A stretch of 64,000 nt of DNA from an uncultured Candidatus Saccharibacteria bacterium (lineage in GTDB: Bacteria; Patescibacteriota; Saccharimonadia; Saccharimonadales; Saccharimonadaceae): the NCBI GenBank assembly GCA_963514625.1, contig CAUPTB010000001.1, forward strand, positions 57,890 to 121,889, written 5' to 3'. Positions 19,204 through 24,310 of the stretch are shown here, in pieces. The notes below the pieces were generated by a model. That model searched no databases. It worked only from the letters and a program-made list of their open reading frames with translations, and was not told the DNA's origin. A program made the position numbers and the translations under genes. The first letter of the stretch is position 1; every line of letters starts with the position of its first letter.

Positions 19204-19436
19204 GTTATAGTTCCCTGACAATTTGGATAGTTGTATAATCACACTATTATAGTACCTCACCCCGCCCGTGTTATAGTTCCCTGACAATTTGGATAGTTGT
19301 ATAATCAGTCTTGGGGACGAATACCAGGGCGAGAAGTTATAGTTCCCTGACAATTTGGATAGTTGTATAATCAGCAAAGCTATGCCCGGCCAGCCCGACT
19401 GTTATAGTTCCCTGACAATTTGGATAGTTGTATAAT
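19204..19436 (+). CRISPR. CRISPR array, 4 repeats and 3 spacers (type II-C)
   Basis: The 36-nt repeat GTTATAGTTCCCTGACAATTTGGATAGTTGTATAAT occurs at 19204, 19270, 19336 and 19401. Spacers are 30, 30 and 29 nt. The strand is assigned from the GTT...AAT repeat polarity and from tracrRNA complementarity. Confidence 0.95.
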
Positions 19437-19444
19437 ACTCACTC

Positions 19445-19473
19445 AAAATCCCCTCTGTTACAGAGGGGATTTT
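19445..19473. terminator. Bidirectional intrinsic terminator between the CRISPR array and cas2
   Basis: Perfect palindrome AAAATCCCCTCTG-TTA-CAGAGGGGATTTT with U tracts on both strands. The cas2 stop is at 19477. Confidence 0.8.
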
Positions 19474-19476
19474 AGT

Positions 19477-19806
19477 TTAGAAAAATGATAGTTGGTTGGC
19501 TTTAACGAGTTCTTCTTGGTCAGTTTTCTCGCCTAGGATGATGAACATAGTAGCGAACTGACGCTCGGTGACGAGAAGCGCCCGGATAGAGCCTTTGGTA
19601 TCCGCTGGTGTATTTTTAGTGACTCTGGTGAGATGCTTCATGGCTACGTCTCGATTAGGGCACAGCCTGCTGTAGACGCTGAATTGGAGCATATCAAAGC
19701 CATCCCCAACTAAAAAGTTGCGGAATTGACTAGCTTGCTTGCGCTCAGCTTTCGTTCCTGTGGGCAAATCAAATAGTACCAACACACGCATATAACGGTA
19801 GCTCAT
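19477..19806 (-). CDS. cas2: CRISPR-associated endoribonuclease Cas2
   Basis: MSYRYMRVLVLFDLPT is a typical type II Cas2 N-terminus. The ORF-track N-terminal extension overlaps cas1 and was discarded. Confidence 0.9.
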   Translation of the reverse strand: MSYRYMRVLVLFDLPTGTKAERKQASQFRNFLVGDGFDMLQFSVYSRLCPNRDVAMKHLTRVTKNTPADTKGSIRALLVTERQFATMFIILGEKTDQEELVKANQLSFF

Positions 19807-19819
19807 GATTAAGATTAAC

Positions 19820-23700: not shown

Positions 23701-24101
23701 CGGTTAGACTTGAAACCACGTCGTTTGGCGATCTGATATATGACTTTGAGCAGCTCCTCGGGTGTTAATTCTTCGGTGAGCGCTTTTGATCGTAAAGCAT
23801 AAACGTCCAGCTTATTGTAATCGGATTCAGGATCTAATACTTCTTCAACTTGATCTTTGGTGAGGATGTTTTGGTCGATGAAGAATTGCTTGAGATGATT
23901 GAGGCGTTGACGACGACGCTTCAGTCGACGACGAGCCGATCGTGCATCACGTCGAGGCTTAGCTAGTGAATCGCCATTCTGCGGGTCTTCCGGCCGCTCA
24001 AAGATTCTTACTCCCAGGTCGTGAATCCGTTCCTTTTCTAAGTCAAGCACTGCCCAGCCTACTGAGCTGGTGCCGATATCCAGTCCAAGTGAATATTTCA
24101 T
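20727..24101 (-). CDS. cas9: Cas9 (type II-C size class, 1124 aa)
   Basis: RuvC-I [19 protein letters not shown]; Arg-rich bridge helix [18 protein letters not shown]; RuvC-II [48 protein letters not shown]; RuvC-III [10 protein letters not shown]. No csn2 or cas4 is present. Confidence 0.95.
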   Translation of the reverse strand: [1124 protein letters not shown]

Positions 24102-24149
24102 AACGTCATTATAACCTTTTCCGGTTATGTGGTACATAGGTGCAAATAG

Positions 24150-24276
24150 ACAAAGACACACAAAGATAATCCGCCTCACGAGGAGACGGAATTACTTTGC
24201 TTTAGTATTTCTACTAAATTATTATAGAAACCTAAGCAATTCAGATAGTTATACAATCATGCTCCCATGAGTGTAC
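24150..24276 (-). ncRNA. Predicted tracrRNA
   Basis: The anti-repeat at 24221-24257 (minus strand) is complementary to the plus-strand repeat transcript. It is followed by the hairpins UUUAGUA-GAAA-UACUAAA and CCGUCUC-CUCGU-GAGGCGG (24171-24189) and a U-rich tail. The promoter lies immediately upstream. The ends are approximate. Confidence 0.7.
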
Positions 24277-24282
24277 ATTCTC

Positions 24283-24310
24283 ATTATAGAGTATCAAGGC
24301 CGGATTGCAA
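24283..24310 (-). promoter_or_regulatory. Sigma70-type promoter for the tracrRNA
   Basis: On the minus strand: TTGCAA (24310-24305), a 16-nt spacer, then TATAAT (24288-24283). Confidence 0.6.

Follow-up and report, generated by a model that had tools for sequence, protein, structure and literature searches.

We analyzed a stretch of 64,000 nucleotides (nt) from an assembly of an uncultured Candidatus Saccharibacteria bacterium (GCA_963514625.1, contig CAUPTB010000001.1, positions 57,890 to 121,889; hereafter the window) and found that positions 19204-24310 hold a complete type II-C locus of clustered regularly interspaced short palindromic repeats and their associated genes (CRISPR-Cas9). Its architecture and the similarity of its Cas9 to known enzymes define it as II-C, with the II-C1 layout. 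We are highly confident that an oral Saccharibacterium (TM7) of the G5/Nanoperiomorbus-like type here carries a complete and probably functional adaptive-immunity system on its chromosome. The system as such is a known and ordinary one, common in oral TM7 and published between 2018 and 2023. Our results on its trans-activating CRISPR RNA (tracrRNA), on the strand of its array, and on the mosaicism of the Cas9 module and of its tail, where the protospacer-adjacent motif (PAM) is probably read, are refinements of known phenomena. For comparison, we scanned one genome per GTDB species, which gave 39 loci (given L numbers below); 38 of them bear titles naming Saccharibacteria, TM7, Nanosynbacter, or Nanoperiomorbus, and their Cas9 proteins are 66-97% identical to that of the window.

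Organization and subtype of the locus

The array and the cas genes, with protein lengths in amino acids (aa), occupy the following positions:

19204-19436, plus strand: CRISPR array of four identical 36-nt repeats and three spacers; repeat GTTATAGTTCCCTGACAATTTGGATAGTTGTATAAT
19477-19806, minus strand: cas2, 109 aa; TIGR01573, 79 bits
19820-20716, minus strand: cas1, 298 aa, type II (NMENI) Cas1; TIGR03639 cas1_NMENI, 289 bits, profile positions 1-277 of 278
20727-24101, minus strand: cas9, 1124 aa; TIGR01865, 712 bits, profile positions 1-1069 of 1070

Read along the minus strand, the order is tracrRNA gene, cas9, cas1, cas2, and then the array with its 4 repeats and 3 spacers. The elements are closely packed, with 10 nt between cas9 and cas1, 13 nt between cas1 and cas2, and 40 nt from the cas2 stop to the closest repeat. 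An earlier note on this DNA, made from the sequence alone, had described the order of the three cas genes and the array, these repeats and spacers, and these distances, and we recovered all of them where it had placed them. The hidden Markov model (HMM) scores of Cas9, Cas1, and Cas2 are far over the curated cut-offs and cover the full length of the proteins. PADLOC calls Cas9, Cas1_II (347 bits), and Cas2_II (137 bits), and the Pfam matches in Cas9 are HNH_4, RuvC_III, Cas9_RuvC, and Cas9_a. Of the related Saccharibacteria loci, 33 extend past cas9, and these have the same cas9-cas1-cas2-array layout.

The subtype was assigned from the accessory genes, csn2 being the marker of II-A and cas4 that of II-B and II-C2. 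No Csn2 or Cas4 family was found among the 56 open reading frames (ORFs) scanned by Pfam across the window, which bears out what the earlier note had said of these genes within these 64 kb. In addition, cas2 is directly followed by a terminator and then by the array, and there is no space for csn2 or cas4 inside the operon. Hence, the locus belongs to subtype II-C. The Cas9 itself gives the same answer when grouped by a score ranking against all solved structures, which is not a full phylogeny: the Geobacillus enzyme comes first (573 bits), followed by NmeCas9 (488), BlCas9 (430), which we take to be II-C, SauCas9 (207), St1Cas9 (168), and SpCas9 (50). In this ranking the Geobacillus and Neisseria II-C enzymes, with E-values of 1e-171 to 1e-145, stand far above the II-A SauCas9, St1Cas9, and SpCas9. 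The architecture and the score ranking agree with the II-C placement proposed in the earlier note.

That note had also described a Cas9 of 1124 aa with intact RuvC and HNH motifs. All the residues concerned were found, and none carries an inactivating change: D8 (RuvC-I), E507 (RuvC-II), and H744 with D747 (RuvC-III) on one side, and D588, H589, and N612 (HNH) on the other. In the alignment to the Geobacillus Cas9, D8 and H589 stand opposite D8 and H582. Its predicted activity, RNA-guided and PAM-dependent cleavage of double-stranded DNA, was judged here from the integrity of these motifs and of the RNA partners. The length of the protein depends on the start that is chosen, since the ORF list gives a form of 1150 aa starting at GTG and the database copy (P0001) is called at 1136 aa. 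The stretch upstream of the 1124-aa start, which is a conserved one, holds a stop codon in relatives, and the Geobacillus Cas9 begins at the same M(R/K)Y motif. Hence, we consider the 1124-aa call to be correct.

A tracrRNA that covaries with the repeat

The region upstream of cas9 holds a predicted tracrRNA, whose parts are the following:

24283-24310, minus strand: tracrRNA promoter of sigma-70 type (TTGCAA, 16 nt, TATAAT), a consensus match only, 10 of 12 positions in the consensus scan
24160-24276, minus strand: tracrRNA (predicted), from pairing, fold, covariation, and terminator scan
24221-24258, minus strand: anti-repeat of 38 nt, pairing with the CRISPR repeat
about 24201-24218, minus strand: nexus-like hairpin of 7 bp, GAAA-capped
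24170-24190, minus strand: GC-rich terminator hairpin followed by a U-rich tail, from the terminator scan

The putative promoter, whose -35 box sets the upper bound of the locus at 24310, is kept in all G5-group relatives and would start transcription at about 24276. Nearly all related loci have the tracrRNA region conserved ahead of their cas9 gene. When the repeat is cofolded with a 99-nt segment of the tracrRNA, the total energy is -57.8 kcal/mol and the duplex shows the usual internal bulge; the fold of the 99-nt segment is 4.4 standard deviations (SD) better than that of shuffled sequences (z = -4.4). The covariation was assessed with RNAalifold on repeat-GAAA-tracrRNA chimeras from 15 distinct loci. 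This analysis recovers the repeat:anti-repeat duplex, the nexus-like hairpin, and the terminator, with compensatory changes in 10 of the 49 predicted pairs and only 2 broken cells among 735 (pair by sequence). With 5 kb between repeat and anti-repeat, their co-variation is strong evidence that both function together. On this comparative evidence we take the tracrRNA to be real, since compensatory changes have preserved both its internal stems and its duplex with the repeat; the crRNA and tracrRNA parts (crRNA standing for CRISPR RNA) that the earlier note had predicted are thus both in place. At the gathering threshold, Rfam gives no tracrRNA or other RNA family at the locus, which was expected because tracrRNAs are poorly covered there.

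In some of the G1-like relatives (L008, L009, L011, L013, and L016, and also L012, L014, L015, and L027) the first, nexus-like hairpin of the tracrRNA carries an insertion of 24 nt or of about 48 nt. The closing pairs of the hairpins with insertions are kept by compensation (TTTAG/CTAAA becoming TCTGG/CTGGA).

Strand and transcription of the array

The four repeats lie at 19204-19239, 19270-19305, 19336-19371, and 19401-19436, and the spacers between them measure 30, 30, and 29 nt (19240-19269, 19306-19335, and 19372-19400). Repeat matches of this kind are not expected by chance (0 expected in 100 shuffles). The unit of 36 nt of repeat and 30 nt of spacer is further supported by 353 spacers from the 30 related arrays with at least two repeats recovered. 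We had considered whether the CA found at the start of the window's spacers might be part of the repeat, and rejected this since the first dinucleotides are diverse across the family and 336 of the 353 spacers measure 30 nt.

The sense of the array can be read from its pairing with the tracrRNA, which on the minus strand has the anti-repeat on its 5' side and the terminator on its 3' side. The GUUAUAG 5' end of the repeat pairs with the 3' end of the anti-repeat, beside the nexus, which implies that the crRNA sense is the plus strand and that the array is convergent with the cas operon. Conservation across clades is found only on the side of the anti-repeat proximal to cas9, which excludes a tracrRNA on the plus strand. 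The polarity of the array could not be read from ancestral spacers, given that zero spacers are common to any two arrays.

Two hairpins found by the terminator scan frame the array:

19450-19468, both strands: hairpin with a CCTCTG-loop-CAGAGG core and T-runs on both strands, between cas2 and the array
19177-19203, plus strand: terminator-like hairpin GCTCACC-CAGC-GGTGGGC, ending 9 nt before the first repeat

The first, detected by the scan on both strands, is a predicted bidirectional terminator that separates cas2 from the array. The second is kept in the G5-group relatives in which this end of the array was recovered. Together they leave no room for a leader promoter on either side of the array, which argues for transcription starting inside the repeats. 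All repeat variants of the family have the motif TATAAT, without exception, as their 3' end. Where relatives have degenerate or truncated repeats, these sit at the cas-distal end, and those of L011, L032, L016, and L025 retain just the 3' part that bears TATAAT. Repeat-internal transcription starts have been shown experimentally for the II-C arrays of Neisseria and Campylobacter, and work by Zhang and colleagues from 2013 reportedly found such transcription in Neisseria together with independence from RNase III. Taken together, these points make repeat-internal promoters plausible here. What speaks against them is that the TG in the window repeat, which reads TTGTATAAT, is one base off the register of an extended -10 element and that no -35 box is present. 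The first impression that every repeat carries the canonical TGnTATAAT had to be abandoned, as this is true of the repeats of G1-like relatives only.

Outside the cas-distal repeat, about 75 nt (within 19100-19203) are conserved across the G5 genomes L001-L004 and L026. This conserved stretch, which may merely terminate the cupin gene, holds a hairpin AAATCC-GTTA-GGATTT in addition to the terminator-like hairpin listed above.

These elements are consistent with the following mode of action. A promoter of its own, just upstream of cas9 and on the strand of that gene, would give a tracrRNA of about 100-117 nt, and cas9-cas1-cas2 would form one tight operon ended by the bidirectional hairpin terminator. 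The array would be read on the opposite strand, toward cas2, most likely from the TATAAT with which each repeat invariably ends, so that each spacer-repeat unit would give its own crRNA. The repeat part of the crRNA would then pair with the anti-repeat of the tracrRNA, Cas9 would load the duplex, and the enzyme would cut matching double-stranded DNA beside a PAM via its RuvC and HNH sites. New spacers would be added by Cas1-Cas2, probably at the cas2-proximal end.

Spacers, targets, and signs of activity

The earlier note had proposed to search for the targets of the three spacers and to deduce the PAM from them. We ran this search against IMG/VR, the metagenomes of the JGI, INPHARED, PLSDB, the window itself, and the related loci, and found no target for the window's spacers. 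More specifically, IMG/VR gave 0 matches for the full 30-mer of spacer 1, for the 24-mers of all three spacers, and for the 20-mer of spacer 1, and the JGI metagenomes gave 0 matches for the 24-mer of spacer 3. The 20-mer of spacer 2 had 7 matches in metagenomes, all of which we attribute to chance (only 21-23 of 30 positions identical). The single match of the array in INPHARED is of low complexity and spurious, the PLSDB plasmids gave nothing, and when the 353 spacers of the family were compared by blastn with the window and with all loci, no target for the window's own emerged. With no protospacer found, no PAM can be proposed, and the inference of the PAM was dropped.

One may thus ask if the locus is a decaying or silent remnant, with a minimal array and no activity, whose genes are intact by chance. 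Three observations weigh against a functional system and in favor of such a remnant: the lack of targets in the searches above, an array of only 3 spacers, at the low end of the 30 related arrays (3-28 spacers), and a cas9 frame that is interrupted at codon 90 in L024, which shows that loss of function does occur in the lineage. A remnant is nevertheless hard to reconcile with the state of the locus, where the three ORFs are full length relative to their profiles, the catalytic residues are intact, the four repeats are all identical, and the tracrRNA, set against those of other lineages, keeps its match to the repeat through compensatory changes. The comparison with L001, whose Cas9 is 97% and whose Cas1 is 100% identical to the window's, is also informative: its five spacers all differ from those of the window, suggesting that adaptation has been active since the two split. 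More generally, each of the 353 spacers is private to its own array, which points to a recent turnover of spacers. We therefore regard a remnant as improbable and retain the reading of a complete and probably functional system.

In L024 (10001-13611; Candidatus Nanoperiomorbus periodonticus G5_1 HOT_356), the tblastn match to cas9 resumes at 10219, and the interruption may reflect either a pseudogene or an assembly error. In L036, the region 13832-16194, next to its own array, contains three imperfect protospacers (26-27 of 30 positions identical) matching two spacers of L036 and one of L018; their 3' flanks have no common PAM. This region may be a mobile element beside the array that is targeted or has escaped.

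Genomic background and age of the locus

The genes that flank the locus, encoding VirD4/TrwB-like, TopA, DprA-like, Hsp20, cupin, and nitroreductase proteins, are 95-100% identical to those of G5-group (HOT-356) loci. Searches by tblastn place the DprA-like ORF at 95-97% identity to Saccharibacteria contigs, and TopA, VirD4, Cas1, and Cas2 at 97-98% identity on L024. The genomic background resembling that seen in the candidate phyla radiation (CPR), which the earlier note had recognized, is borne out by this identity of the flanking genes to Saccharibacteria contigs. These comparisons place the host among the oral Saccharibacteria of the G5/Nanoperiomorbus group.

The note had further remarked that the cas genes are richer in AT than their neighbors and had seen in this a sign of recent acquisition. 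The composition is indeed lower in GC, with 45.5% for cas9, 48.8% for cas1, and 46.7% for cas2 vs 50.6 +/- 4.9% for the 46 other ORFs. This is weak as a signal, for the offset is about 1 SD and 9 of these 46 ORFs are as low or lower; moreover, among 11 relatives compared, 10 likewise have a cas9 with more AT than its flanks. The position of the locus is more telling. The order topA-virD4-(hsp20 in the G5 group)-cas9-cas1-cas2-array is kept in nearly all loci with enough flank, and it persists where TopA is only 60-64% and VirD4 65-69% identical to the window's. In these diverged clades Cas1 (57-60%) and Cas2 (61-63%) show a divergence similar to that of TopA and VirD4. Hence, the locus is old within mammal-associated Saccharibacteria, and the proposal of a recent acquisition finds no support. 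The adjacent VirD4/TrwB-like gene had raised the idea that the locus lies on a mobile element, which we dropped because the topA-virD4 neighborhood is a conserved chromosomal synteny across clades.

The same evidence bears on the idea that the whole locus was recently transferred from a non-CPR oral bacterium. Apart from the GC content, this idea draws on the origin of the nearest characterized Cas9s, which come from Firmicutes (Geobacillus) and Neisseria, and on the accounts of Shaiber et al. 2020 (PMC7739484) and McLean et al. 2020 (PMC7427843), in which oral TM7 clades gained CRISPR by transfer after the move into mammals. The best Cas9 relatives outside Saccharibacteria are only 32-44% identical, however (L037, taxonomically unassigned, and plasmids), the insertion site is the same in distant clades, and Cas1 and Cas2 diverge in step with TopA and VirD4. 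Together, these points imply that any acquisition from outside the phylum predates the split of these Saccharibacteria clades, and a recent transfer of the whole locus seems very improbable to us. A chimera of assembly or binning, by which the locus would come from a non-CPR organism, can be practically dismissed: beyond the general risk of metagenomes and the Firmicutes-like nearest structures nothing specific points to it, the locus lies within 64 kb of contiguous sequence with both flanks 95-100% identical to Saccharibacteria contigs, and more than 30 independent assemblies show these junctions again, among them the single-cell amplified genomes of TM7 HOT-348 and HOT-352 and the record of Candidatus Nanosynbacter sp. 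TM7-087.

A probable exchange of the effector module

If the locus as a whole is old, its effector module appears to have a different history. The Cas9 of the window is 83-86% identical to those of the G1-like loci L008, L010, L015 (TM7 HOT-348), and L027, and only 70-71% identical to those of the sister G5 loci L022 and L026, whose Cas1 proteins are 98-99% identical to the window's. A nucleotide comparison of the window with L022 gives 94% identity down to about 24564, 70-77% in the block that follows, and 90% from about 20777 onward. The block of low identity (window 20777-24468) corresponds exactly to the tracrRNA and cas9, and its flanks are 90-94% identical to sister G5 genomes. The Cas1, Cas2, TopA, and VirD4 of these G1-like loci are just 57-69% identical to those of the window. 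The simplest reading of these identities is that the effector module was replaced by recombination with a G1-like donor.

The end of cas9 adds a further layer. The Cas9 proteins of L002-L004 and L007 are 94-100% identical to the window's along most of their length but only 61-62% in the last 74 residues (about 1051-1124; window 20727-20950), with a variable patch at about residues 1068-1105, and those of L025 and L030 have wholly different last 220 or so residues. Taken together, we think it somewhat likelier than not that the tracrRNA and cas9 (about 24468-20777) were swapped in by recombination from a G1-like (Nanosynbacter-type) lineage, that cas1-cas2, the flank of the array, and the adjacent genes are native, and that the tail (last 40-75 residues or so) is a further mosaic, shared only with L001.

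Type II-C Cas9s read the PAM in their C-terminal part, and the close alleles Nme1, Nme2, and Nme3 Cas9 are known to have swapped PAM-interacting (PI) domains. As the C-terminal mosaic falls in what is likely the PAM-reading part, PAM specificity is, by analogy with these enzymes, probably being shuffled by exchange of the tail. If this is true, Cas9 modules and PAM specificities pass between oral episymbionts that belong to different families, perhaps via natural competence, an exchange for which we know of no prior description in CPR bacteria. The pattern of mosaic cas9 genes and PI domains suggests a natural panel of close Cas9s with different PAMs, and it is also evidence for DNA exchange between Saccharibacteria lineages.

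Comparison with known systems

Systems of this type have been reported repeatedly in these bacteria. In oral Saccharibacteria, cas9, cas1, and cas2 were described by McLean et al. 2018 (bioRxiv 258137); a II-C locus of G5 oral TM7, Candidatus Nanoperiomorbus periodonticus HOT-356, was then reported by McLean et al. 2020 (Cell Rep, PMC7427843). Shaiber et al. 2020 (PMC7739484) found CRISPR to be common in five oral TM7 clades, with cas9 best matching oral TM7 and Firmicutes, and a survey in mBio in 2023 (PMC10746230) lists II-C1 among the Saccharibacteria systems. The Cas9 is not new either: a 100% identical protein is already present in NCBI, ENA, and Logan (in the database form P0001), although an exact look-up of the 1124-aa form and of the 1136-aa P0001 returned no encoding contig on record. 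Among the matches listed, 120 protein clusters are all at least 84% identical, one of them annotated by NCBI as 'type II CRISPR RNA-guided endonuclease Cas9' from TM7 phylum sp. oral taxon 348. The earlier note had held that such systems are generally thought to be uncommon in ultra-small episymbiotic bacteria and that this Cas9 would be a useful new orthologue; the 38 Saccharibacteria orthologues, the identical public protein, and the prior papers speak against both.

Among the closest described systems is the II-C locus of G5 TM7 (HOT-356), which has the same lineage, gene order, and chromosomal site as that of the window. It differs in its cas9 allele in L024 (about 68% aa identity, with the interrupted frame mentioned above) and in its spacers, which are all different. 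The account of McLean et al. 2020 (PMC7427843) does not treat the tracrRNA, the strand of the array, or the mosaicism of Cas9, and we found no paper on the tracrRNA, the array strand, or the mosaicism of the Cas9 module and PI tail in TM7. The crRNA:tracrRNA pair and the strand of the array would allow the design of single-guide RNAs (sgRNAs) for the biochemistry of this Cas9 family, which is of modest practical value.

The II-C loci of TM7 oral taxon 348 and other G1-like bacteria, with Cas9s at 83-86%, have the same layout and tracrRNA architecture, and their 36-nt repeats differ at 4 positions. They are set apart by an N-terminal extension of Cas9 of about 10 aa, by repeats ending in TGnTATAAT, and by the insertions in some first tracrRNA hairpins. 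The II-C system of Neisseria meningitidis (NmeCas9, 6JDQ) is alike in the order of tracrRNA, cas9-cas1-cas2, and array, in its 36-nt repeats and 30-nt spacers, in repeats that end in a -10-like box, in the absence of csn2 and cas4, and in the homology of its Cas9 (E 5e-145). It belongs to another phylum, and transcription from within the repeats is proven there whereas here it is proposed. The Geobacillus Cas9 (GeoCas9/ThermoCas9; 8UZA, 8JTJ, 9AR4) is the best solved relative, with an alignment near full length (E about 1e-171) and the same catalytic motifs; its host is a thermophilic Firmicute, and its REC and PI regions are only moderately similar to those of the window. The three structures are labeled just 'Cas9' in the database, and we take them to be Geobacillus enzymes from their N-terminal sequences. 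The GeoCas9 repeat, presumably GUCAUAGUUCCC...GGUAUAAU, may resemble that of the window.

Other features of the window

Several further genes of the window may relate to defense. Some 3 kb from the array, an ORF of 203 aa (15427-16038, plus strand; 42% GC) has no Pfam match and scores 178 bits against the PADLOC 'phage defence candidate' PDC-S57; only fragments of about 69-72 nt match it in L001, L002, and L004. A protein of 407 aa (33758-34981, minus strand) is weakly similar to KwaB/DUF4868 in its C-terminus (Pfam E 2e-4, below the cut-off; PADLOC E 6e-7). Beside it lies a low-GC gene with a NYN domain (35456-36100, minus strand), and the pair may be defense-related.

A 23-nt sequence repeated perfectly in tandem (TTGTCGTCCCACACGTCATAACG twice, 18057-18102) lies between the genes for the nitroreductase and the cupin, in overlapping ORFs that match no family; relatives have only weak matches (38-54%) to the ORFs of this region, or none. 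On the minus strand, 36690-42996 encodes large membrane proteins of the DUF2207 family, three paralogues in tandem with 647, 757, and 720 aa. Finally, a DpnII-type restriction-modification cassette (52103-54699), consisting of an N6_N4 methylase, a DpnII endonuclease, and a Dam-like D12 methylase, has the lowest GC content of the window (39-41%) and lies just downstream of its only tRNA, a tRNA-Leu at 51704-51790. Given this composition and the adjacent tRNA, the cassette resembles an acquired island more than the CRISPR locus does.

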